From positions 1,050,001 to 1,082,000 of the forward strand of contig CP042461.1 in assembly GCA_004563595.2 (NCBI GenBank): a stretch of DNA of 32,000 nt, read 5' to 3'. Positions 147 to 26,933 of the stretch are shown piece after piece. The DNA comes from Candidatus Saccharimonadota bacterium. Its GTDB lineage: Bacteria; Patescibacteriota; Gracilibacteria; BD1-5; UBA6164. Below the pieces are notes generated by a model. It was not told the DNA's origin. It did not search any database and saw only the letters and a list, made by a program, of their open reading frames with translations. A program made the translations under genes and the position numbers. How positions within the stretch are numbered: the stretch's first letter is position 1; the number at the start of each line of letters is the position of its first letter.

Positions 147-220
147 TCTGAGTTCGCCAAGTGGTAAGGCCGGGGACTCTGAATCCCCTATCATAGGTTC
201 GAATCCTATACTCAGAACCA
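147..220 (+). tRNA. tRNA-Gln (anticodon CUG)
   Basis: 74-nt cloverleaf. Acceptor tctgagt/actcaga. D-arm gccaagtggtaaggc (tRNA-Gln-like). Anticodon stem gggga/tcccc with loop c-t-CTG-a-a. T-arm atagg-ttcgaat-cctat. Discriminator a plus encoded CCA. Confidence 0.85.
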
Positions 221-9720: not shown

Positions 9721-10467
9721 ATGAGAAATACAAAACAAGCATTCACGTTAGTGGAACTTATCGTAGTTATTACTATTTTAGCTATACTTGGTACTATAGC
9801 CTTTATATCTTTACAAGGGTATTCAGCTGATGCTAGAAACTCTAAAAGAGTAAATGACCTTGGGAATCTTGCTGATTCTGTAAACATTAAGTCTACACAA
9901 GGATCATCTCTATTAAGTTTTGTAACTTCTGATACAAACACTACTCTTACTAATGCTAGTGTTGCTGGTACAGGAACTCTTGCTGCTAATTATAGTGCAG
10001 GTTTCCCTAACTATATCGCTCTTGGAGTAAAAGAAGAAGATTTTAAAGATCCAAATGGTCCAGAATATAGAGTTGCTGCAACTACTAATAAAAATGGTCA
10101 ATTTGAATTTGCTTCTTCTATTGAAAATGGTGCAGGACTTGATACTGCTAAAATAATCGGTAACTATAACAATAGAGGTGTAGCTGCTGGTGATACTGCA
10201 ACTATTACTTCTTCTGGTACTCTTTCAGTTACTCTTGCTGATACTGATATCGGTAAGATAGTAAGAGGAGATACTGTTACTGCTGGTGGTACTGCTGCTA
10301 TAGTAGTTACAAAAGTATCATCTGATGGTACAACTCTTACTCTTAACGCTGCTCATGGTGTAGGTACAGGTGTACTATTATCTGCTGCTGAATCAACTAG
10401 TATAATTGCTTCTACAACTGGTGTAACAACTCCAATTGAAGCTGATACTGAAACAGTTCCTTATTAA
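9721..10467 (+). CDS. pilA: Type IV pilin (prepilin with N-terminal methylation/cleavage motif)
   Basis: MRNTKQA-FTLVELIVVITILAILGTIAFISLQGY is the class III signal peptide plus conserved hydrophobic alpha-1 helix with Glu5. Position -1 is Ala rather than Gly. Thr/Gly/Ala-rich globular part. 248 codons with no TGA at all. Confidence 0.9.
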   Translation: MRNTKQAFTLVELIVVITILAILGTIAFISLQGYSADARNSKRVNDLGNLADSVNIKSTQGSSLLSFVTSDTNTTLTNASVAGTGTLAANYSAGFPNYIALGVKEEDFKDPNGPEYRVAATTNKNGQFEFASSIENGAGLDTAKIIGNYNNRGVAAGDTATITSSGTLSVTLADTDIGKIVRGDTVTAGGTAAIVVTKVSSDGTTLTLNAAHGVGTGVLLSAAESTSIIASTTGVTTPIEADTETVPY

Positions 10468-11798: not shown

Positions 11799-12659
11799 TT
11801 ATTTTTGAAACTTTTTTCTCAGAAATATAAATCCAGTTAACAGTGTAGTAAATAGTAATACTATTCCAGTTTCTGTTCCTGTTTGAGGACTTGCAGCTGC
11901 ATTAAGAGCTACTTCTTCTAAGTTTTCAATTTCTTCTGTAGTTTCTTCAGCGTTGAGTAAATCATCATCTGAAAGAAGTGCATCAATTGAGAGTTCTTCT
12001 TCTTGTACTCCTTCTAATGTATCAGATGTTTCAAAATTGTATAAGTCATCATCTAATACAATTTCAGTTCCCATTATATCTTTTAATGAAAGTACAATAA
12101 TCATATAGTTAAAGTTTTTTTCAAACGTTTCAGCAATAGATAATTGTAATTTATTTTCTGCACTATTATATGTCATTGCATCTACTGTAAGTTCACTTAG
12201 AAGTTTAAATTCAAATTCATCTTCAGTAAGTGCTTCAAAGAAAACAACTTCTAATGTCCTTGTATCTTTTACAATAACTTTTACAATACCTTGTTCAGTT
12301 GGAACTATTTCATTCATAATTTCTACATCCTCAAGTGAATCAGTAGTAGTAAAATCTATATTTCCATCAGCTCCAAAGATACTTAATAAGCTATAGTTAT
12401 TCCCTGTTTTTAAATCTTCATTTAATGTAAGGATTACTTTGCTTGCATCATTAAAGTCTTTTGAAGCAAAAGTTATATTAATATCTTTTAAAACTTTCAT
12501 TTCACCTTCTACCGTATCCCCGAGAGTAATATCTTGTGATAATTGAAGATTTATATTTTTAGTATCTGCTACTTCCACTGTATCAATATTTGCTGCATGA
12601 ACAGAAGTGATACATAAAGTAGTAATAAACATAAATAATAGTGTTCTTATATTTTTCAT
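11799..12659 (-). CDS. Secreted surface protein with C-terminal sortase-type sorting signal (SPQTG + TM + basic tail)
   Basis: 286 aa, intact even in the standard code (no TGA). Signal peptide MKNIRTLLFMFITTLCITSVHA. Acidic body. C-terminus ...AASPQTGTETGIVLLFTTLLTGFIFLRKKFQK has the LPXTG-like tripartite layout. Confidence 0.75.
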   Translation of the reverse strand: MKNIRTLLFMFITTLCITSVHAANIDTVEVADTKNINLQLSQDITLGDTVEGEMKVLKDINITFASKDFNDASKVILTLNEDLKTGNNYSLLSIFGADGNIDFTTTDSLEDVEIMNEIVPTEQGIVKVIVKDTRTLEVVFFEALTEDEFEFKLLSELTVDAMTYNSAENKLQLSIAETFEKNFNYMIIVLSLKDIMGTEIVLDDDLYNFETSDTLEGVQEEELSIDALLSDDDLLNAEETTEEIENLEEVALNAAASPQTGTETGIVLLFTTLLTGFIFLRKKFQK

Positions 12660-12752
12660 ATATATGGTAAGTTATGTGTAATAAATAATGTACTTCTATT
12701 ACATCATATTTTTATTTATGAGTCAAATATATTATGCTCCAAAGTATCTTTT

Positions 12753-12819
12753 TGTACTTAAATTCTAATCCATCCCCTTTCACTTCGTTACAGGTACTTC
12801 CTTTGACAAAGGAAGAAAT
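12753..12819. repeat. Solo copy of a ~60-nt intergenic repeat unit (same family as 28107..28260)
   Basis: tgtacttaaattctaatccatcccct...ggtacttcctttgacaaaggaagaaat aligns with both arms of the 28.1-kb palindrome. It contains the hairpin cttccttt/aaaggaag. Confidence 0.5.
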
Positions 12820-12846
12820 TAAGAGTTACCAATAGCTACTTAATTA

Positions 12847-13845
12847 TTAATTCATAACTACTCCGTAAACTCCTTTTACAACTTCTTTCATTTTAGTAAA
12901 ATCAAGTGTATCAATCGTGTCTTCTAGCGTGTGATAATACTTATTTCTCAAAAAAGATGTATCTGTGATCATATATGCTTTATATCATAGGTCCCAATAA
13001 CTTCTATGGTCTGAGAATGATACTCCATGAATGAAATCTGGTGCATTTATCGACCAGACATCAATCTCTGAATTTGCAAGCATGTTATATTTTATATCTT
13101 TTAGGCTCATATCTCATAATTGTCAGATAAGAGCTATAAAATCTCATTTACTCGGGTAGATCCGGCTTAAAAATCTCAATGGATACTTCTGGATTTTTTC
13201 ATCACTAAAATATCAAATCATTTCAAGTGAAATCATATATTGTATATCAATATTCTGGTCTTTTAAAGATTTTGCATGTATATAGCTTCACATATTATTC
13301 CCTGCAAAATAAGGGAGTTCTTCCAATGTATACGCTACAAATTCGATACTATTCTTCAAATTATTTTTATCTTTTCCTACGAGTCTTGTAAGTTCCAAGA
13401 GTCCTGCTACTCATGATGCATTATCATCAGCTCACCTAAAAGTTAAGCCCTCAGGATTTTCATCTAAATATCAACTCCCATCAACATCATAATGTGCTCA
13501 TATAACGATTTTCTGAGGATTTTCTCCATCAAAACTACAAATTACATTTTTATATTCATCTTTTCAGATTGTATATGGTTGATACGTTACTGAATCACAG
13601 CCTGATTCTTGAAAGTGTGTAAATATGTACTGTGCAATTTCATTGAGTCTTTTTGTATTTTTATAATCTCTTTGTTCAACTGTCTCTGTTAAATATGAGA
13701 CATGTTTTTTAAGGTTTTCTTCGCTTATATCTATCTTAATACTACTCTTTGTTACTCATAAGTAGATTGGATTTATGAGTAGATGGAGAATAATAAGGAT
13801 TGTTAGTATAAATGAGGTGTAGATAAGGAGTTTTATTTTTTTCAT
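12847..13845 (-). CDS. M28-family zinc aminopeptidase, N-terminally membrane anchored
   Basis: 332 aa. TM LLIYTSFILTILIILHLLI. Motifs IVIGAHYD, RGADDNASGVAGLLEL and SFSDHRSYW are typical of M28 peptidases. Confidence 0.85.
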
Positions 13846-13925
13846 GGGGATGGTGTGGTTAAGGTTAATTTTATATCAAAAATATTATATGAATAACTTT
13901 CAATTGATGCTTTTTCAAGAAAAGC

Positions 13926-15563
13926 CTACTTATCAGAATCTTTATCTACTAATAAATTTTCCGAAAGTATCTTCAATTCATTTATAAATGAAGGAATAAA
14001 TCAATAATCTTTAAATTTATCCACCATCAAACTTGCTTTTACAGATTTAGATCTAGTTAAAAGATTTACTTCATCTTTCATAGCTTGTAACTCTTCTTTT
14101 TCATTATTTTTTAAAAATTCTTTTTCAATAGTCTCTTCAAAATCTCATTCTAATATTACTAAATTTCCATTACTAATATTCTTATTTTTAAAAAGATTTA
14201 TATTTTCTGTAATATCTGTAATAGGAATATTAAAACATTTAGAAATTAACTCATTAGATTTTTCTTTACCATTTGTGCTATCATTATCAAAAATACAAAT
14301 TACAGGAATTCAAAATTTATGAAATAATCTCCAATATTTTGGAATTTCACCTTTTCCACCTACTCATAAAATTGAAATTCAAAGTGAATTATAGTTAAGT
14401 CATATCGTTTCAAAATATTTGGGAATAGTAATTTCTTCTGTAGATCATTCTCATAATATTATTAATCTACTGAAAAATCATTCAGTTAAACGATAATTTG
14501 ATATCGATTTATAGAAATTTCTCACTTTATCTTCACTATTTCAATGAGGTCATCATGTATTATTTGTAAAATCTAATAGTTCAGAGCATGTTAGCTTACA
14601 AATTTTAGAGTATGTTCTTCATTCATTTTCTTCATCATCAACTTTATAAATTCTTCTAATAGATTCAAAGTTATATATCTCTAAAAAATTTGAATCATGA
14701 GTTGTGTAAATTACCTGTAATCAACGATCTGCAATTTCTTTCAATATTTCAAATAAATGCTTCCTAGCCTGTGGATGTAAATATATTTCAGGCTCTTCTA
14801 TTGCAATAATTCATGATGCTCAACGAAAGTTTTTAGCATAACTTCTTAATAAAGAAATGATTGTTAGATTTTTAGCTCAATCTCATAGTTCTTCAATATC
14901 TATATTATTTCCAACATTAGGGTCACTAGCAAGTATGTTAATTGTCTTAAAATAATTATTTGGAGTGAAAGGCTTAAAATCAATATCTAATTTATAAGGA
15001 GAATCTGATTGCATCTCATTAAAAAAAGATTTAAAATCTCTTTCAAAGTTAGAAAAGCTCTCAACTTCATTAAAAATATCTTTAACACTATCAAAATGAG
15101 TTGCTAGTTTTAATTTTTGCTCATCATTTATTGATTTGTTAAAACTTTTTGAAATTTTTGACATCAAAGACCATTTATTAAATGATGTATCTTTAGATAT
15201 GCTTCTCTCTGCTGATAAGTATGTGCAAGGGAATTCATCTTTTATACTTGTATAAATTTTTCATCAAGAAGAATCACAATATTCTGGCCACTTTTCTCAA
15301 CTATCAAATGTGACATAGCTTCAATTATCAAATACTATTTTTATTAAAATAACTTTTTTTGTATCTCAACAATAATAATCATATTCCTCTAGCCTATCTC
15401 CATTAACCCAACTCTCTCATAGAACTAAATCAATTGCCCTCAAAAAATTTGATTTTCATGCATTATTTGCTCATATTATTGATACAATTCAATTTTCAGG
15501 GAATTCTAAGACTTCATCCTTTATACTTCTAAAATTTTTAATATGTACTTTTTTTATTTTCAT
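13926..15563 (-). CDS. OLD-family nuclease (ABC-type ATPase fused to Toprim domain)
   Basis: 545 aa. N-terminus IKKVHIKNFRSIKDEVLEFPENGIVSIIGANNAGKSNFLRAIDLVLGE, where both Walker A glycines are TGA. LGDGAKNL, Walker B IIAIEEPEIYLHPQ and YTTHDSNFL. C-terminal Toprim IILGEGSTEEI ... GISILGVGGKGEI ... PVICIFDND. Ends with TAG at 13926..13928. Confidence 0.85.
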
Positions 15564-15689
15564 AATAGATTTTTATAAATTACCTATTTACACTCTTCAC
15601 TCACAACGTATTGAATTTCAACCATTTCTTCATTTTATAAAAGTTAATAATTATTTGTTTAATGAAAATTAAGTTAAATACCAAAAGAT

Positions 15690-15730
15690 ATAACAATAAT
15701 ACCATGACTTCGCCTTGGTGTTATTGTTAT
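15690..15730 (-). terminator. Hairpin at the 3' end of the rhs/orphan/immunity unit
   Basis: ataacaataatacca pairs with tggtgttattgttat (one wobble). On the minus strand it is followed by atcttttgg. It overlaps the stop of the immunity gene. Confidence 0.45.
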
Positions 15731-16077
15731 ACAGACATTAGTATTCATAAATATGTTCATCATACAATTCATGATAATATAGCAATAATAAATGAAATTC
15801 TCAAAATATATTTTTTTGTAAATAATGAAACATTATAAAGAAAAACCATTAATAAATAATTATAAATAGTGATAATTATAGCTTTTATTTCATCTACTCA
15901 ACTCGGTAATATTTCAGCTAACCAAAAAGAATTATTAAAATTATAAACAAAAATTAAATTTATATAATTCCATTTATAGCTAGTTGAAAGATCAATTATA
16001 GTAAAAAGTATTGGAATGATACTTAACCATAAAAATCAAAAAATAATTTTACTGTTTAATATATTTTTTTTATTCAT
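15727..16077 (-). CDS. Putative immunity protein for the orphan Rhs toxin cassette (small polytopic membrane protein)
   Basis: 116 aa, ATG 7 nt after the orphan cassette stop. MNKKNILNSKIIFGFLWLSIIPILFTIIDL...FIIAILSGIVGGTYLGILMSV. It has several hydrophobic segments. Its size and position match the gene at 16874..17227. Confidence 0.6.
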
Positions 16078-16083
16078 AATAGT

Positions 16084-16887
16084 TTAGTTATTATTTAAAG
16101 TATTTCACCACTCAAGATAAGTATCTACATCATAATCTTTATGTAATCCAGGGTTTAAAATTGGAGAATAAAAATTATATGTTCATATGTATTTATCATT
16201 CGTCAATTTTTCTGAATTTTTATAAAAAATTATTTCTCTATGTCAATTAGGTGAGACAAATTTTCTCTCTATTCATCATACATTATAATCTTGATGAAAA
16301 AAGGCTCAAAGATATGCCGATCAACGAAATTTAGGTTCCTCCCATAATTCATCTTTAGCATGATCAATAGATGTAGGTAAATTAATATTATATCTATTCC
16401 TATCATAATGTAATTGTTTAGCTATTTTTTCTGCAGGTAATAACTCATCATATGCAATTTTTCTTGTTTCCTGAAGTCTCTGTATTAAATTATTTTTACC
16501 TGTTATCATTGGGTATTTATAAGCTTCTGTAATTTTTTGGTTAATTGACTTAAATATAAGTTTTTTTTCTAAATAATCATCATAAGCTTTCACAAATTCC
16601 TTAGCAGCTAACCCCATTCTATCAACAAACCCAACTGGATTATTCCCAACATACGCATACAAATTCACATCATCACTTATATCTATAGGATCTCTACTTA
16701 TAAATCTCCCCAGTTGTGGATTGTAATATCTTGCTCTGTTGTAGTAGAGCTTGAGTTCTTTTTCATATTCATGATCTGTATACAGTCTTGTGTTTCAAAT
16801 CGCTCATTTTTCATTGTATCTTTTGAAAAAATAAAACCAAGACAGTTCTAATATCTTAGTTTTATTTAGAATATTAAGCTGTAATAT
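16084..16887 (-). CDS. Orphan Rhs C-terminal cassette (core-end fragment + variable toxin domain), no canonical start codon
   Basis: The frame is open from the TAA at 16888..16890 down to TAA 16084..16086. It reads ...IGNTRLYTDHEYEKELKLYYNRARYYNPQLGRFISRDPIDISDDVNLYAYVGNNPVGFVDRMGL followed by a ~174-aa CT domain. The first in-frame ATG is the M of DRMGL, so this is probably a silent or displaced cassette. Confidence 0.7.
16567..16801 (-). repeat. 235-bp direct repeat (Rhs core-end), copy in the orphan cassette
   Basis: Colinear with 17715..17949 at a constant offset of 1148 bp. The central part (…aaccccattctatcaacaaaccc…ctccccagttgtggattgtaatatcttgctctgttgtagta…) is nearly identical. Confidence 0.85.
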
Positions 16888-17227
16888 TTAGAAAGAAGAA
16901 TCAAAATATAGAAGATAATATTCATAAAATGAGAGTATACATATATATATTGTTTACTTTAGCATTTATCATAATTTTAGTATAAATAAAAACTAATATA
17001 AAATTAAATATAAATAAAATAATAATATAGAATATTGTATCTTGAATACTAAATGGTATTGGTAAAAATAGGTTTCATAGAAGTCACCCTAAATATGTTT
17101 TATAAACAAATAATATATCATGATTTTTATATCATTTTTCAAATAAAATTGTACTTATTGAAGCAAGTAATGGTATAAAATTTATTAAACCAAAATTAAT
17201 ACTTGTTTCTTTTATATATTTTCACAT
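16874..17227 (-). CDS. Putative immunity protein for the main Rhs toxin (small polytopic membrane protein)
   Basis: 117 aa, ATG 17 nt after the Rhs stop. MGKYIKETSINFGLINFIPLLASISTILF...IFYIIILFIFNFILVFIY...LILGILSSIFGFFFLNITA*. Its stop (16874..16876) lies within the open orphan-cassette frame, which reaches up to 16887. Confidence 0.6.
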
Positions 17228-17243
17228 AAATTATTAGTTAAAA

Positions 17244-20200
17244 TTAAAATCAGGTTTTTCTTCATAATAATGAAGTATTATCATTATATGAATTTCACCA
17301 TTCATAATAAGGACTTATATCATATTTACTATGTAATATAGGCTCATCCACAGGACTAAAAAAATTATAAGTTCATATATCTTCATCATCAGTTTCTAAA
17401 TACCCTCTGTGAGTATATACAACTTCTTGATGTCAATCAAAAGATACAAACTTTTTATTTGGTACATGCAACGGTGCAGTTTGTTGATGATATAATGCTT
17501 TTCAATAAGATAATTGATTCCATTTATCTTTATCTAAATTTTTTAATTCATATGATTGATTTAAAGTGTTAAAATCATTTCTATTATAATGCAAATCTCT
17601 TGCTAACTTTTGTTTTCTATTAAATTCATTTGTTAATTGTTGCTTTTTATATGAATTCAAAAATAAAAATCAAAGATCTTTACCTCATCAAAAATTATAT
17701 ATTTTTGATTTTATTTCCAAATAATCATCATAAGCCTTCACAAACGCCTTAGCAGCTAACCCCATTCTATCAACAAACCCAACAGGATTCCCTCCAACAT
17801 AAGCATACAAATTCACATCATCACTAATATCAATCGGATCTCTACTTATAAATCTCCCCAGTTGTGGATTGTAATATCTTGCTCTGTTGTAGTAAAGCTT
17901 TAATCCCCTATCATATTCTCTTCCAGTATACAATCTCGTGTTTCAAATCTTGGACTTCTTGAGTCTGGTTATTTTTCCATTCTCTTCTTTTGTATACGGT
18001 TTTCAAAATACATCATATGCGTACTCCTCAACTATACTACCAGTTTCATCTGTGATTGCAATAATACTTCATAGGTGGTCTTTTTGGTAGTAATAGGTAT
18101 TGGTTTCTACGTAACTTTCTTTGATCTTTCTGGTCTTTGCCTTACCATTTGCGTTTATATATTCTTCTTCTATCTTTCTTGTCTTGTAAGCTATTATATT
18201 CATAGAAATGATGTCATCTATTGAGTTTCAATAAATAAACTCTTTTGAATTCTTTAGCTTGTCTTTTTTAGAGTAGTTTTCTTCTCAGATGATGTCTTGG
18301 TTTGAGTAATAGTATTTTCTATAACTTCCGTTATTTAATTTCTTTTCGATTCTTCTTCATAGGACATCATAGCTTATTTCTACTATTCTTTTGATCTGCT
18401 CTATTTCTTCTGTTTCAATATCATTTACCTTTTTGTAGATATTTTTTTCTACTTTAATTAATCTATTTTTGTAATCATAGCTGTAGATGTATTGTCTTTT
18501 ATTATTCAGATTATTTCAAATGAGATTTCCATTATTATCATAGATGAGTCTTCATTCAAGTTCTATTTCTTCTGTTTCTTCGAGGCTTTCCTCAATAGCG
18601 TCTGATTCTTCTTCTATGAATTCTGCTTCTGTAATAATTTCAGTGCTAATTATTTCTATTGTTCCCGTTCCTGTTGGAGTTTCTATTGTGCCTGTACTGG
18701 TTTCTTCTTCTATTTCTTCTATGTCTACATAGATTGATCTATCAAGGTATTGGTTCAGATTATTTGTAGCATAAGCAAATTTCTTTTCTCTTTGAGTTCC
18801 GTTTTTTGTGAGTTTTGTTAGGATTTCTCTGCTTCTGTTTCACATCAAATCATATTCAAAACTTTCTGATGATTTGTTTTTGTGTTTTGTTTGGTAGTTT
18901 GTAGTGGTAATTCTGTCTTGAGTATCATAGCTATATGAATCTACTCCGTTTGAAACGATATTTCATTGAGTGTTGTATGTGTAGTTATAGTTTCAGAGTG
19001 AACTTAATCTTGAGAGAGCATCATAACTGTAATTTGTTACTACTCAATTTCAGAGTGTTTTACTGAGTTGTGTGAAACTATCATATGTATAGTTTGCTAT
19101 ATTTTGGTCATTTCTTGTAATACTTGTTCATCTGTTTGCTCCATCATATGTATAGTTTGTAGATATGGCTTCTACTCCCTCTCCTGCAGGAGAGGGTTGG
19201 GGTGAGGTTATACTTGTTCTATTTCATGAAATGTCATGTGTATATGTTATCGTTTTATCTGAATTTGTTTCATTTACGAGTCTTCATAAACTATCATATT
19301 CAAATCATAGATCATTTCACTCATTATCAGTGGCACTTATGAGTCTTCATAATGCATCGTATTCATATATTTCACTGGTTACTCATCATACTCATACTCA
19401 TGTTTGAATATCTCTTTGTTTGAGTCTGTTGAGTCTATCATAATTGTTTACAACAACGGTTCCATTTGGATCTGTTGTTTTGTTGAGGTTTCATGATATA
19501 TCATATTCATATCTCATTACTTGTTGATCTGGATATGTGATTGTAACAAGTTGTCAGAGGTCATTATAATCATAGAGAGTAATATTGTCATTTGCATCTG
19601 TTACTTTTTCAAGATTTCAATTGATATCATAACTATAATTTATTGTTCTTCATTCATGAGATTCTGATAATATATTTCAACTATAATCATATGTATAATG
19701 GGTTATTCATCCATCTTTATCAGTTTTTGTGATAACTTGATTGAGTTTATTATATGCATAGCCCTCAAAATCTCCATTATTATCTATTTCTTTTATGAGC
19801 CTTGAATCTGTATCATATTCATAACTCGTTCCTATAGTCTTCCCTGTTGTTCAAACTATTTTTTTCTCTGTTATTTTATCATTTTTATTATAACTGTGGG
19901 TGATAATATTACCGAGTGTATCTGTAGCTGTTGTTAGTCTATTGAGAGTATCATAACCGTACAGTGTAGAGTTCCCTTTTGGGTCTACTGTTTCTATAAT
20001 ATTTCATATGGCATCATATTTTGTTTTTGTTGTTATTGTTTCATTTATGGCTAAGAGTATTTTTTTATTTTCAATCACTCTTCATAATATATCAAATGTG
20101 TTTTGCTCTTTTAATACTAAAGTATTATTTCCATCAGAAACTCGTGCTTCTGTTATTCCTCATAATGCATCATACTCTAACTGAGTAGTTGTAAAGTGTG

Positions 20201-23200
20201 GATCTATTTGTTTCTCGATCCTATCAAAGAGATCATATTCAAATTTTGTCTGCGTCTCGTTTGGATGAATTTGAGTGATGAGTCTATTATTTATGTCATA
20301 GACATATTTTGTAATGATATTTTGATTGATTCCTGCCTCCGTAGGAATGACTGTTTTTTTAATAATAAATCATGCTTCATTATATTCAAACTTCTGAGTG
20401 GCATTATTTCCATCAGTTATTTCGGTAATATTTGAATTTTTATCATACTGAGTCACTGTTATTTTTTGCCTACTTGCATCTATGTCTGTTGTGATTTTTG
20501 TAGGATTATCTAAAATGTCATATTCATAACTACTGTCTATAGTTTCAGTTCCTGATAATATTATTTTCTCGTTTGTCTTTTTATTCAGTTTATTATATAC
20601 ATATTCACTTACGATTCCCTCTGGAGTGGTAAGCTTTTTAAGCATATTAAAATCATCATAACTGAGATTTGAAATATTTCATTCTGCATCTGTTATACTG
20701 GTAATATTTCACTTATTGTCATAGCTATAGTTTGTAGCTATTTCCTCTCATGAAAGAGACTTAACAGTTTTTAATAAATTTCCATTCTGATACTCAAAAC
20801 TTGTTTCGGATCCATTTCCATCAATCTTTTTTATAAGTTCTCAGAGTGTGTTGTATTCAAACTCTTCTATAACTATTATAGTATTTCCATCATAATCTTG
20901 CACTCAAAGTACTTCTGTTTTTGTGATGTTTCCATTACTATCGAGTTCAAAGTTTGTAACTCTTCCATTTGGAGCAATAGCTTGAGTTATTTTATTAAAG
21001 ACGGGGTGGTAGGTATAGCTATATACTATATCTTCTGCTGAGTCAGCTGACTGAACATCTTGTTTCATTCTCTTTTCTATGAGGTTTGATCTCGTATCAT
21101 AGTCATATGTATATCCATTTCAAAGTGGTAAGATTTCTTTTGATATATAGTTATTATTATCATATTCATAAGTGTATATACTGTCTCAAGTATATTTTTT
21201 CACTATCTTCCCAATGGTATTTCAGTTTGAATCATATGTATAGATGACATTGTTTCCTTCCCTATCTAAGACACTGTTTTGAGTTATTTGATTCTCTGCA
21301 TCAAGAGTATAGGTATATCAAATAGTTCCTTCTCAAAACTTTTGTGTTGCAACTCTATCATCTCCATTATATGTATTTTCTACATAGATGTTATTTTCTG
21401 AATCTATAAGTTGTAGTATATTATGAGACGATTCAAAAGTATCTCACATCGTATATGTGAAACTAATTTCTTTTGAGCTTATAGTATTCGTAGTTGTAAT
21501 AGTTTTTAAATCAAATTCATCTCCATCAGTTTCTCCTGTTCAGAAATATATAAACTCAACGGTATCTCCGTTAAAATCAGTTATATCTTTGATTCTCGAA
21601 TGACCATAATATGTCAGATTATATACTCTCGAGTTTGTATCTATTATTTGCGTTAATGCATTGTTTGCATCATACATAAAACTCATAGTATTTGAGAAAT
21701 TATCTGTGATACTTTGTAGTCTTAGGTTATTATTAAAACTGAGAGTTGTAGTGTTATTTAAGTTCACAGAGTATGTTCCATTTGCTAAGCTGAGGGTTCA
21801 TTTAAGAGTCTCATTTCCTAAAAATCAAGTTCATGATTTTATAAATTGGAATACTCCAAGCTTCCCATTGTGGTAGTTTATATTTCCATCATTGTCTTCA
21901 ACTAAAAATTGATTGTAATTATAATCAAAATTATTTCAGAGGGGTCCGTTATAATAGGATTGATTTTGGTAGTTTATTTTAAACTCAAATGGAAATCAAA
22001 CAGACTTGTATTGCATAAGAGTGTTATCATATACAAATTCTCATGTGTTGAGGTTTACAGGATCTCATGCTGTTGCTTCTGTATTTATTTCTTGGGATAC
22101 TGTGTTATTCGTACTCTGAGTACTTGTTTCTTGGATCGGTCAGATAAAAATCTCTTCTCATGATGGAATGTTATTCTGAACGAAAATATTTCCATTATTT
22201 TCTACATAATTAGAGTATGAAAAATCTGGAGTAAAATTCTCATTTATTACATTCACTTGATAAGTAGTCGTAGCATCTGATAGATTTCCATCTGCATAGA
22301 CTCATCTTACATACCAGTTATATGTTCCTGTAGGAAGTGAAGCTATTTCAAGTTCATAATAACGCTCTACTACTTGTATAGCACTATCATCCTTAAGATA
22401 GAAATTATATGATACGGCATTTTCTATGCTATCCCAAATAAGGTAGGTATATCATTGTTTGTAATCTATGTTTAAAACATCTCATCATGTGCTTACTTGT
22501 TCCACTTGTTGTACTATTTCTTCGATAACCGTAGCATCAACATTTTCGATAGTTTGATCTACTATTACATCTCAGCTAATAGTTGTTGTTGTGATATCTA
22601 TTTCATAGTTTGATGAAATAATCACGATGTCTGCTTGTATATTTCCAGATACTGTTTGCGTAATTACAGCAGGTCAACCACCACCCGTATTACTTGGTGT
22701 ACTCGGAGCTAAGTTCACTGTTTTTACAACTACTTTATTTACTGTAGTATCTCCTATTGTTTGTGTCGTAATACTTTGCGTTACTTCTAGATTTTCTATT
22801 TCAATTACTATTGGTGCTGTATCCTGAGTAATCGTTTTAATAGTAATACTTTCTCAGCTTCATTCTCAATTTGAGGATACTATTGCTCCATGTCAGCTAA
22901 TTCATCAAAGAGATATTTGTTTTGTTCCATCTACATATAATGTATACCCGTTTAAATAAATAACTCCATCATAAACAAAGTCTCCATCTATAGTAATGTT
23001 ACTTTGTAAGTTCATGTCTGATGATATTGGTGTCGATCAATTGATAGTTCTCGCTTGGGTACCATTTACATATAACTGAGTAACATCAAAGCTTCAATTA
23101 TTTTCTATATTTCATTTTGCTGTTATTTTTGAAGTTCATCCTGATGAAGTGAGTATAGTTCAATTATTTACTACATTCCCTTCTACTGTTATATTTGCCC

Positions 23201-26200
23201 CATTTAAAAGATTATATTCTTCTTGATTAGCTATAAGTAAATCTCAGTTTATAGTAATTGGGTCTGGGAGAGTATTTTTATTTAAAGTAAGAGTTGCTAT
23301 ATTTGAATCAGCGATTCCATCATTTACTTTTGCATAAATAACTACTGCTCCATCTTCTAGGTTTGAGAGATCTAAATTGAAATTAAATTCTCAATTCTCC
23401 ATTGGAGTAGATCATGTGGAACTGAAATTTATATAATTTGTTCCATCAAGTGAATAAGAAAAAGTGAGAGTTTGATCTGCATCAAGATCTTTAATTCAAG
23501 CGATTTTGAAATTAATAAATTCTTGGTTTATCAGGGTTATAGAAGTTTGTGTAGAAGTGAGGCTTCCTATAAGTGGAGCCACTTGATCGAGTCAAATTCA
23601 TTGAATACATCATGGGACGTTGATACATTTAGCTTCTGTCCAATCAGAATCGGATAAAATACCATCTCATTTTACTCTCCAGTAAAGATTCGTTCAAGTT
23701 TCTTTGATCGCCGTTGGAAGTAAATATTGAGTTGAGTTATTGACACTTATATCTTCTTCTCATGTGATTGAAAGGATGTAGTCAGAGTATGAATCTATTG
23801 GAGCCCATTTTAGGTAGGTGTTTGTAGAGATGTTTCCGTTTATGTTGTCTAATGCTCCATACAAATATGCTTGCGATACATAACTCAATGAACCATTATT
23901 AATTACATCTCATTTAAAATGAACATAAAATAATTTTGCAGCATTGTTGTTGTATCATCAAATAATACCATTATTCTCTATACCTCCATCTACTGTTAAC
24001 GTATAATAATTATACGTTAATTCTGTTTTCCTTAATATTCCATTTCAGGTAAGTACTACATCTCAGTTTAATATAGTGTTTCACATAATTATTGATGTTC
24101 CATCTAATGTTAATCTGTCAAATGTTGATGTATTTACTATATTTCATTTTGCCAGTACTTTTCTTCATGTGAATCCATTCAAATTATACAACACTTCTGT
24201 ATTCTCTATATTTGTTTCTGTATTATAAATACTTCATACTTTGATTATTTCTCCATCTCAGTTAATATTTGAACTTAGTATTTTTCATACATACGGATAG
24301 TTCAAATATATATCCTTTGCCCCATCTACATACAATGTATAATTCTGTAAATATGTTGTAAATTGAAAATTGATGTCTCATAATAGTTCAACATCTCAGT
24401 TTAAATAAAGATTTGGTTTGAAATTATCAGATGAAGTAATAGTTCTGACTCCATCTGTTTCAGTATCTTGAATATAGGTGTTTCATGACCATCATGAATC
24501 TGATCCATTTGTAACATCTCAATACAAATATGCTTGCGATATATAACTTAATGAACCATTATTCAGTACATCTCATTTAAAATGAATATAAAATAATTTT
24601 GCAGCATTGTTGTTGTATCATCAAATAATACCATTATTCTCTACATTCCCATTCACTGTTAATGTATAATAATTATACGTTGATTCTGTTTTTCTCAATA
24701 TTCCACTTCAGGTAACTACTACATCTCAATTTAAAAGAGTATTTCATGTAATTTTTGATAACCCATCTAATGCTAATATATCAAATGTTGATGTATTAAC
24801 GATATTTCATTTTGCTAGTACTTTTCTTCATGTAAAGCCATTTAAATTAGATCATACTTCTATATTCTCTATATTTGTTTCTACATTGTAAATGCTTCAT
24901 ACTTTGATTGCTTCTCCATCTCAATTTGTATTTGAACTCAATACTTTTCATACATATGGGTAGTTCAAATATATATTCCTCGTTCCATCTACATACAAGG
25001 TATGGTTTTGTAAATATGTTGTAAACTGAAAATCTATGTCTCAGAGTAATTCAACGTCTCAACTTAAATAAAGGTTTGGTTTGAAATTTGGTGATGAGGT
25101 AATAGTTCTAACTCCATCTGTTTCAGTATCTTGAATGTAGGTATTTCACGACCACGATGAATCAACTCAGTTTGTAACATCTCAATATAAATATGCTTGT
25201 GATATATAACTCAATGAACCATTATTCACTACATTTCATTTAAAATGAACATAAAATAACTTTGCAGCATTGTTGTTGTATCATCAAATAATACCATTAT
25301 TCTCTATACCTCCATCTACTGTTAATGTGTAATAGTTGTACGTTGATTCTGTTTTTCTCAATATTCCACTTCAAGTAATTATTACATCTCAATTTAATAT
25401 AGTGTTTCATGTAATAATTGATGCACCATCCAATGTTAATCTATCAAATATTGATGTATTAACAATATTTCATTTTGCTGTTACATCTCTTCATGTAAAT
25501 CAATTCAGATTTAATCATACTTCTGTATTTTCCATGTTTGTTTCTACATTGTAGATACTTCATACTTTGATAGTCTCTCCATCTCAGTTTCCATTTGAAC
25601 TTAGTATTTTTCACACATACGGATAGTTTAAATATATATTCTTCGTTCCATCTACAAACAATGTATAATTTTGTAAATATGTTGTGAATTGAAAATCTAT
25701 ATCTCATAACAGTTCAACATCTCAGTTTAAATAGAGATTTGGTTTGAAATTTTCTGATGAAGTAATGGTTCTGACTCCATTTGTTTCAGTATCTTGAATA
25801 TAGGTGTTTCATAACCATGATGAACCTGATCCATTTGTAACATCTCAATACAAATGTGCCTGACTAACATAACTCAAACTCCCATTATTAATTATATCTC
25901 ACTTGAAATGAACATAAAATAACTTTGCAGCATTGTTGTTGTATCATCAAATAACCCCATTATTCTCTACATCCCCATTCACTGTTAATGTATAATAGTT
26001 GTACGTTGATTCTGTTTTTCTCAATATTCCACTTCAAGTAATTATTACATCTCAATTTAATGTAGTATTTCATGTGATTTTTGATAACCCATTTAATGTT
26101 AATGTATCAAATGTTGATGTATTTACTATATTTCATTTTGATGATACCTTTTTTCATGTGAATCCATTCAAATTGTACAATATTTCTGTATTCTCTATGT

Positions 26201-26933
26201 TTGTCTCCACATTATATATATTTCAAACTTTGATTGATTCTCCATCTCAGTTAGTATTTGATGATAATATTTTTCATACATACGGATAGTTCAAATATAT
26301 ATTCTTTGTCCCATCTACATATAAGGTATGGTTTTGTAAATATGTTGTGAATTGAAAATCTATATCTCATAACAGTTCAACATCTCAGTTTAAATAGAGA
26401 TTTGGTTTGAAATTTTCTGATGAAGTAATGGTTCTGACTCCATTTGTTTCAGTATCTTGAATATAGGTGTTTCATAACCATGATGAACCTGATCCATTTG
26501 TAAGATCTCAATACAAATGTACCTGACTAACATAATTTAAACTCCCATTATTAATTACATCTCACTTGAAATGGACGTAAAATAACTTTGCAGCATTATT
26601 ATTATATCATCATATAATCCCATTATTCTCTACATCCCCATTTACTATTAATGTATAATAATTGTACGTTGATTCTGTTTTCCTCAATATACCATTTCAC
26701 GTAATACTCACCCCTCCCACCGTAGTATTTCATACAATATTAACTAATCAATTCACCTCAACAACATCATCAACATCTGGAACGACTCCTTCCACCCAAG
26801 TTGATACACTATTCCAATTCCCTCAAGCTGACGTTGAATGGATAGTTGGCTCTAATACAGCCCAAGCGCTCGCAAAACTAAACGCAAAAAATAAAGACAT
26901 TATCACAAATATCCTCAAAACAATCCTCCTCAT
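17244..26933 (-). CDS. Giant Sec-dependent Rhs/YD-repeat polymorphic toxin (WapA-like), 3,229 codons
   Basis: ATG 26931..26933 and TAA 17244..17246 share a frame, and all track fragments with YD sequence (17688, 20370, 21540) share it too. No TAA/TAG appeared in the parts translated by hand (26933-25800, 23880-23340, 22450-17244). Signal peptide MRRIVLRIFVIMSLFFAFSFASAWA. 221-aa tandem repeats. FN3/Ig-like modules. DPVNLNTGEF, many YD repeats, and core end ...YYNPQLGRFISRDP...NPVGFVDRMGL plus a ~170-aa CT domain. Confidence 0.85.
17715..17949 (-). repeat. 235-bp direct repeat (Rhs core-end), copy in the main rhs gene
   Basis: See 16567..16801. It encodes IGNTRLYTGREYD...NPVGFVDRMGLAAKAFVKAYDDYLE. 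Confidence 0.85.
23810..26745 (-). repeat. In-frame tandem repeat array, period 663 bp (221 codons), ~4.4 copies, inside rhs
   Basis: The same landmark (antisense ttgtacgtt(g/a)attctgtttt) recurs at 24010, 24673, 25336, 25999 and 26662. 25681..25840 is identical to 26344..26503 over 160 nt. It encodes GN/GD-rich beta-helix-like units (ITGNGILRKTESTYNYYTLxVNGDVENNG...). Confidence 0.9.

Follow-up and report, generated by a model that had tools for sequence, protein, structure and literature searches.

A probable reserve toxin tip downstream of a polymorphic Rhs gene in a Gracilibacterium that reads TGA as glycine

Why should a bacterium with a complete Rhs gene keep, immediately downstream of it, a second copy of the core end of that gene, which has a tip of its own and no start codon ahead of it? 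We examined this question in a 32,000-nucleotide (nt) stretch of contig CP042461.1 (positions 1,050,001 to 1,082,000, hereafter the window) from Candidatus Gracilibacteria bacterium 28_42_T64. The element in question consists of four genes in the same orientation, which run 5' to 3' on the minus strand in the order main rhs gene, immunity gene imm1, orphan with the tip CT2, and immunity gene imm2. Our analysis indicates that it probably forms the 3' end of a locus encoding a polymorphic Rhs toxin, with a reserve tip cassette downstream of the main gene. All frames in the window were re-translated with genetic code 25, in which only TAA and TAG are stops, and in this code the coordinates that an initial annotation of the DNA had given for the main stop (17244), imm1, the stop-to-stop frame of the orphan, and imm2 all hold. 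The features on which the argument rests are as follows (aa, amino acids).

17244..26933, minus strand: main rhs gene, 3,229 aa, an open reading frame (ORF) with TGA as a sense codon (open frame to 26945, ATG at 26933).
17709..17949, minus strand: main copy of the homology handle, that is, the last ~63 Rhs core codons (IGNTRLY...FVDRMGL) and the first ~18 tip codons (AAKAFVKAYDDYLE).
17247..17765, minus strand: CT1, the tip of the main gene (M of DRMGL to the last codon), with a ~115-aa domain of the form HYxRN...HQ...KFVSxDGHxE...GTYNF...HxxYD...WGN.
16874..17227, minus strand: imm1, 117 aa with three predicted hydrophobic segments; its start lies 16 nt beyond the rhs stop.
16802..16873, minus strand: spacer from the imm1 stop to the start of the main/orphan homology.
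16084..16887, minus strand: orphan open frame, 267 sense codons and a stop, with the upstream stop TAA at 16888-16890.
16618..16825, minus strand: Rhs core remnant of the orphan, TIGR03696 positions 11-76 only.
16561..16801, minus strand: orphan copy of the handle, 241 nt, 88% identical to 17709-17949.
16087..16617, minus strand: CT2, the orphan tip, of the same family as CT1.
15727..16077, minus strand: imm2, 116 aa with three predicted hydrophobic segments; its start lies 6 nt beyond the orphan stop.

The orphan lies downstream of a complete rhs gene and its immunity gene, retains only the 3' end of the core, has no start ahead of that core, and carries its own tip and immunity gene. As judged from the sequence, this is the anatomy of an orphan rhs-CT/rhsI module, and it supports the displaced-tip arrangement that the initial annotation had proposed. 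The same annotation had reported that no ATG precedes the core end of the orphan and that the start-less frame re-encodes the Rhs core end. Both statements were confirmed: neither ATG, GTG, nor TTG occurs between 16887 and 16669, and positions 11-76 of TIGR03696 were recovered from the frame. The first canonical starts (GTG 16668, TTG 16662, and ATG 16617) all fall within the conserved core end. The probability that 268 codons stay open by chance at the base composition of the window is ~4e-10. Additionally, both aspartate motifs (RDPID and VDRMGL), which carry out C-terminal self-cleavage in the Rhs proteins that have been studied, are kept in the main core and in the orphan core. The 5' end of the remnant (16802-16825, EKGAIGN, then EYEKELKLYY) resembles the core lineages of other genomes and is unlike the resident main core. 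A separate observation concerns 16826-16899, comprising the last ~25 nt of imm1 and ~50 nt of spacer. Within 15722-18100 this segment alone resembles no related locus in its DNA, and it may be a scar left by the insertion that displaced an older tip.

The starts inside the core remnant raise the alternative that the orphan is a small gene expressed on its own, with a product beginning at ATG 16617 (MGLAAKEF..., essentially a free tip) or at GTG 16668, and with CT2 and imm2 as an internal toxin-antitoxin-like pair; we consider this unlikely. The NCBI and Joint Genome Institute (JGI) gene callers both give a 194-aa hypothetical protein from GTG 16668, and in Salmonella the Rhs tips, orphan included, are expressed from internal promoters too and work as toxin-antitoxin modules of type II (PMC7043789). 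Since no Shine-Dalgarno-like motif precedes any of the 21 confident gene starts in the window, ribosome-binding sites give no guide to where translation begins. However, all of these genes (21 of 21) start with ATG after an AT-rich leader and none uses GTG, and the GTG start is probably a gene-caller artefact because it lies within the Rhs core remnant. The M of DRMGL is also found in the main gene and in many Rhs cores, and so appears to be conserved as part of the core and not as a start. Promoter-like sites were not enriched (18 found, 21.5 expected), and terminator-like sites were absent between the four genes, both scans being uninformative in DNA of 28% GC (guanine plus cytosine). Moreover, a product of this kind would be without an export signal, and an immunity protein that spans the membrane several times does not resemble a cytoplasmic antitoxin, which binds its toxin, and fits an exported toxin better.

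How a reserve tip could come into use is suggested by the two core ends, which form an ungapped direct repeat of 241 nt at an offset of 1148 with 88% identity. The initial annotation had placed this repeat at 16567..16801 and 17715..17949 (235 bp); its offset stood, with 88.1% identity and 94% in the centre, whereas its span proved to be slightly longer. By block, the identity is 73% at 16747-16801, 94% over the 148 nt at 16599-16746, and 87% at 16561-16598, with a perfect run of 59 nt at 16688-16746, and it falls to 23-24% in the flanks on both sides. In 20 second-order Markov simulations of the window the longest exact repeat was 14-18 nt, as against the run of 59 nt, which rules out a chance repeat. 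The commonly cited minimum for RecA recombination is ~25-30 nt. When a crossover was made in silico within the 59-nt run, exactly 1,148 bp containing CT1 and imm1 were lost, and the product was an in-frame Rhs-CT2 chimera of 3,233 aa with imm2 directly after it. The simulation thus bears out the in-frame fusion and the loss of the current tip and immunity gene that the initial annotation had predicted, but the specificity switch that it had envisaged needs restating. Since CT1 is homologous to CT2 (37% identity, E = 4e-28), such a switch would change the toxin/immunity allele and not the kind of toxin.

What, then, is the cargo? The tips are 170 aa (CT1) and 174 aa (CT2) long, and CT2 keeps every invariant and near-invariant residue of the family. 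An exhaustive protein search returned 94 relatives with the ~115-aa domain (HYxRN...HQ...NxKFVSxDGHxE...GTYNF...HxxYDVxPY...WGN), and a word-indexed search with the toxin-domain profile returned 11 unnamed proteins. For the searches and the structure model, the JGI product P0001, translated with code 4, and the correctly translated relative P0012 (from locus L088) served as proxy queries. The domain occurs in many bacteria at the C-termini of Rhs, MafB, PAAR, LysM, DUF7211-headed, and other carrier proteins. Neither tip and neither immunity protein matched any Pfam (E up to 10) or NCBIfam model. By comparison of their sequences, CT1 and CT2 are clearly different alleles of one unannotated toxin family. 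DUF7211, which is present in six family members, was rejected as the identity of the domain, as it is an unrelated N-terminal motif of 25 aa. No significant match was found by a profile search of the PDB or by Foldseek with a model of a close relative at a pLDDT (predicted local distance difference test) of 90. The top match in both searches was the AMOP domain of human Isthmin-1 (ISM1, 9c6t), a weak one in each case (profile E = 0.05; Foldseek E = 0.23, probability 0.63), and the paper on the ISM1 structure describes a binding fold and not an enzyme. An AMOP assignment was rejected, the matches being too weak to use, although the lead came up twice, by independent routes.

The genes that follow the tips form a family as well. 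In 18 Gracilibacteria modules with a readable downstream ORF, the toxin domain is followed at -100 to +25 nt (mostly 2-25) by an ORF of 86-157 aa (mostly 110-125) with two to four hydrophobic segments. These ORFs belong to one family, which includes imm1 and imm2 (28% identical to each other), and toxin and immunity similarity co-vary (Spearman 0.46). Because the pairing of the toxin domain with a membrane ORF is conserved, we infer that imm1 and imm2 are the cognate immunity genes of CT1 and CT2, respectively. In addition, since the immunity partner is always an integral membrane protein, the toxin would be expected to act at or in the cytoplasmic membrane or the envelope.

Exchange of modules through core-end recombination should leave the handle and the cargo with different histories, and the comparison with other genomes shows such a difference. 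CT1 and imm1 are closest to their counterparts in locus L088 (59% and 46% identity), where the nearest imm1 homologue sits after the nearest CT1 homologue, and this locus is collinear in DNA with 16900-18041 of the window. In contrast, CT2 and imm2 are closest to L112 and L091 (43-46% and 34-38%), which are collinear with about 15940-16800. In the same comparison, CT1 and CT2 share only 36% and imm1 and imm2 28%. The two handles, on the other hand, are mutual nearest neighbours among 101 Gracilibacteria core ends, with 87% DNA identity compared with at most 82% to any other. At identical residues their codon identity is 0.80, compared with 0.60-0.70 for other handles of similar protein identity, and synonymous divergence (dS) is 0.37-0.44 in the handle and ~0.9 in the tips. 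By these measures, the excess similarity of the handles is modest, and a recent local duplication is unlikely.

A duplication origin was also considered, in which the two modules would stem from a local tandem copy of core end, tip, and immunity gene (unit 1,148 nt) followed by fast diversification of tip and immunity, and not from displacement by an incoming module. The shared toxin and immunity families, the near-equal lengths (tips 170 vs 174 aa, immunity proteins 117 vs 116 aa), and the strictly collinear order would fit such an origin. It is nevertheless very improbable, as CT1/imm1 and CT2/imm2 are each closer to other genomes than to one another, L088 being collinear with core end, CT1, and imm1, and L091/L112 with CT2 and imm2; the 5' part of the orphan remnant also represents a different core lineage (EYEKELKLYY, GKGxIGN type). 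This alternative concerns the origin only and leaves the predicted mechanism unchanged.

The arrangement is not peculiar to the window. The initial annotation had suggested a survey of related genomes for alternative tips, and the survey, once run, showed that 38 of the 59 low-GC (Gracilibacteria-type) loci retrieved with the core end have a long Rhs frame followed downstream by truncated core-end modules; these number 58 in total, and in 30 of them the core motif is preceded by no in-frame ATG. One locus (L020, 4771-10068) combines one main gene with three cassettes at a spacing of 1,164-1,487 nt, and its handles are up to 100% identical; within-locus handle identity is 90-100% in many other loci. 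By sequence comparison, the architecture of the window is a common one, represented here by a single cassette whose handle is comparatively old. No paper in the searchable library was found to treat RHS repeats or polymorphic toxins of this kind in Gracilibacteria or Absconditabacteria. As a further observation, L020, L077, L082, L095, L103, and L110 hold arrays of two to four start-less cassettes of core end, tip, and immunity gene, ~1.1-1.5 kb apart, in which handle identity reaches 100% and the tips come from several different families.

By its domain content, the delivery gene itself encodes a bona fide Rhs protein. Its product matches RHS_repeat (PF05593, E = 3.1e-80, six stretches), DUF6531 (PF20148, E = 5.7e-10, aa 1623-1690) in the N-terminal plug region before the repeats, and the Rhs-associated core (Rhs_assc_core TIGR03696, E = 3e-23, positions 1-76 of 76), and the JGI product carries a precomputed TEN_YD-shell annotation. 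The PxxxxDPxGL-type motif at the core end is present as the variant NPVGFVDRMGL, and the upstream aspartate motif RDPID is there as well. The N-terminus has a putative Sec-type signal peptide (MRRIVLRIFVIMSLFFAFSFASAWA; MRR, a hydrophobic core, and ASA-WA), as judged by inspection only. The part ahead of the shell contains one further feature.

23855..26806, minus strand: five tandem 663-nt (221-aa) repeats in the pre-shell N-terminal part, spaced 663 nt apart, 66-89% identical.

These five repeats match no known family. A PAAR domain is absent from the main Rhs protein in the Pfam search, and the 32-kb window contains no genes for a type VI secretion system (T6SS), a type VII secretion system (T7SS), or CdiB/two-partner secretion. 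Given the putative signal peptide and the lack of such parts in the window, the protein is probably exported by Sec to the cell surface, in a WapA-like manner.

The mechanism that we propose is as follows. A YD-repeat shell at the cell surface would carry the ~170-aa toxin tip CT1, and imm1, a small polytopic membrane protein, would shield the producer from it. The silent cassette downstream would comprise the last ~70 Rhs core codons, an intact CT2, and its own membrane immunity gene imm2, which may be co-transcribed with the operon and protect against relatives that deploy CT2-type tips. The orphan tip would not be made as such; it could be activated by RecA-type recombination between the handles, with deletion of the 1,148 bp holding CT1 and imm1, or alternatively by recombination after a prior duplication that keeps imm1. 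Toxicity, immunity, and Sec export are all parts of this scheme that we infer from sequence.

Several points weigh against this proposal. In two to three assemblies of the organism, no recombinant junction was found, and only the parental arrangement was present. Recombination should be rare, because the handle is as short as 241 nt, differs at 12% of its positions, and contains exact runs of just 59, 37, 23, and 17 nt. The deletion would also remove imm1, which would be costly. Much of the 88% identity of the handle is attributable to protein conservation and codon bias, and in other genomes handles that match it equally well in amino acids also reach ~80-82% identity in DNA. Finally, internal initiation is possible at the in-frame GTG 16668, TTG 16662, or ATG 16617 in a genome that lacks a Shine-Dalgarno signal.

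Some of these points would equally suit a decaying relic of a past tip replacement, in which only imm2 matters, as acquired immunity, and the likeness of the handles reflects conservation of the core protein. The handle has a dS of ~0.4 at its 88% identity, the handles of other genomes at the same amino-acid identity reach ~80-82% in any case, no variant arrangement was found in independent assemblies, and the higher handle identity within many other loci (90-100%) makes this handle look old. Nonetheless, we judge a relic to be improbable, slightly more so than an independently expressed orphan. The 268-codon frame is intact in 28% GC DNA (P ~4e-10), none of the invariant toxin residues is missing, the two aspartate motifs of the core are kept, and the synonymous-site identity of the two handles exceeds that to any other retrieved handle. 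The perfect run of 59 nt that is left is also longer than the ~25-30 nt generally held to be the minimum for RecA. A reserve tip that can be recombined onto the main gene is, in our view, the probable explanation.

All of these readings depend on the genetic code of the window, which is code 25 (TGA = Gly). The GC content is 28.6% and in-frame TGA is abundant; a table-11 ORF listing showed nothing longer than ~100 aa at the place where a gene of ~3,000 aa had been put. The invariant glycines of the FtsZ motifs GGGTGTG and GGGG and of the Walker A motif of PilB are encoded by TGA, which establishes the code, and the NCBI translation of the orphan reads G at TGA codons. The main rhs gene has 163 in-frame TGA codons, compared with 133 GGN and 14 TGG, and TGA accounts for 44-100% of the glycine codons in most genes of the window. 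The JGI calls on Ga0239576_1000037 were made with code 4, which places W at every TGA glycine (P0001 vs P0095). Codon usage also showed some exceptions: a pilin-like gene (9721-10467, plus strand) has 25 GGN and no TGA, an adjoining gene for a 286-aa secreted-looking protein (11799-12659, minus strand) has 11 GGN and no TGA, and FtsZ uses TGA for only 29% of its glycines. In the pilin-like and 286-aa genes, this could reflect expression-linked avoidance of the reassigned codon or a foreign origin.

The window is identical to the JGI contig Ga0239576_1000037, and the orphan product corresponds to QFR39549.1 (A9Q91_04995) of Candidatus Gracilibacteria bacterium 28_42_T64 at NCBI. An independent ENA assembly (L160) is base-for-base the same over 12084-20668 of the window (8.6 kb), so the arrangement is not an assembly artefact. 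The main rhs gene is called at 3,218 aa in the JGI assembly, whereas the ENA call of 2,997 aa is shorter by exactly one 221-aa unit; this difference is either copy-number variation or an assembly collapse. The genome paper annotates large proteins as 'TccC' and is silent on Rhs orphans or immunity genes (PMC6851277).

Other genes in the window include type IV pilus genes, an OLD nuclease, an M28 peptidase, a Na/Ca exchanger, NusA, and FtsZ. Two further features are listed here.

13926-15563, minus strand: stand-alone OLD-family ATPase/TOPRIM nuclease, GajA-like (PADLOC 'Old', 2.4e-52; Pfam AAA_15 and OLD-like_TOPRIM).
147-220, plus strand: tRNA-Gln (CTG), the sole tRNA in the window.

The OLD-family nuclease gene lies directly downstream of imm2, and no GajB-like partner is visible in the window.

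How does this locus compare with known systems? A 'C-terminal displacement' of enterobacterial rhs genes was reportedly described by Jackson et al. in 2009. The closest parallel is Salmonella Typhimurium LT2 (STM0291/STM0292 and rhsI), in which a complete rhs gene plus its immunity gene are likewise followed by a start-less core fragment with a different tip and immunity gene, and in which the direct repeat between main and orphan copies is the crossover site, recombination dropping the main tip and immunity gene to yield a deployable chimera (PMC3967940). Activation of that orphan by recombination has been shown experimentally, and a prior duplication was proposed to keep the main immunity gene (PMC3967940), whereas recombination was only simulated in the present study. 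The Salmonella repeat is also longer and better conserved (522 bp, 95%) than the one in the window (241 bp, 88%), and delivery there is by a T6SS, while the present protein has a putative signal peptide and the window lacks T6SS parts. Another difference is that the two tips in the window come from a single toxin family and that imm1 and imm2 are both polytopic membrane proteins.

Arrays of orphan cdiA-CT/cdiI and rhs-CT/rhsI modules in enterobacteria (Poole et al. 2011, PMC3150448) similarly consist of tandem truncated tip and immunity cassettes downstream of a delivery gene, each with a short conserved stretch before the tip, as in L020, L077, L095, L103, and L110. The host in our case instead belongs to the Candidate Phyla Radiation (CPR)/Patescibacteria and has code 25, the secretion route is different, and the toxin and immunity families are absent from Pfam and NCBIfam. 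WapA of Bacillus subtilis, which Koskiniemi et al. in 2013 are said to have described as a Sec-exported, wall-associated contact-dependent toxin of the YD/Rhs family, belongs to a cell that has no outer-membrane secretion machine, and its polymorphic tip at the C-terminus comes with a neighbouring immunity gene, much as in the present protein with its putative signal peptide, but WapA tips are tRNases with cytoplasmic immunity, and WapA has wall-binding repeats. The Tc toxin TccC and the BC-component shells share the YD-repeat shell and the C-terminal aspartyl autoprotease motif around a variable tip. Unlike in Tc toxins, however, no TcA/TcB partners occur in the window, and the immunity genes next to the tips, together with the orphan cassette, speak for a polymorphic toxin aimed at bacteria and not for an insecticidal complex.

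Extending the argument beyond this genome, it is conceivable, if rather doubtful, that Gracilibacteria have a lineage-wide, Sec-dependent exchange of Rhs tips through the core-end handle, in which start-less cassettes are shuffled and the tip is an undescribed envelope-acting toxin, neutralised by an immunity protein with three to four transmembrane segments, maybe a distant AMOP relative, and carried by Rhs, MafB, or PAAR proteins in other phyla.

The orphan layout itself is already known; what stands out here is the host (a CPR bacterium with code 25 and no T6SS parts in the window), how common the layout is among its relatives, and a paired toxin/immunity family without a Pfam or NCBIfam model and with a confident structure prediction. 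The public annotation can also be corrected, since public records list the orphan as a hypothetical protein of 194 aa from GTG and the JGI calls put the wrong amino acid at TGA. Orphan Rhs tips are a textbook reserve of toxins and immunities swapped by recombination, and here they are found in an uncultured, recoded, genome-reduced CPR bacterium, from a group with genomes of ~1.3 Mb and TGA read as Gly. Together with the 38 of 59 related loci that share the layout, this suggests a heavy investment by these presumed episymbionts in contact-dependent antagonism that does not use a T6SS.

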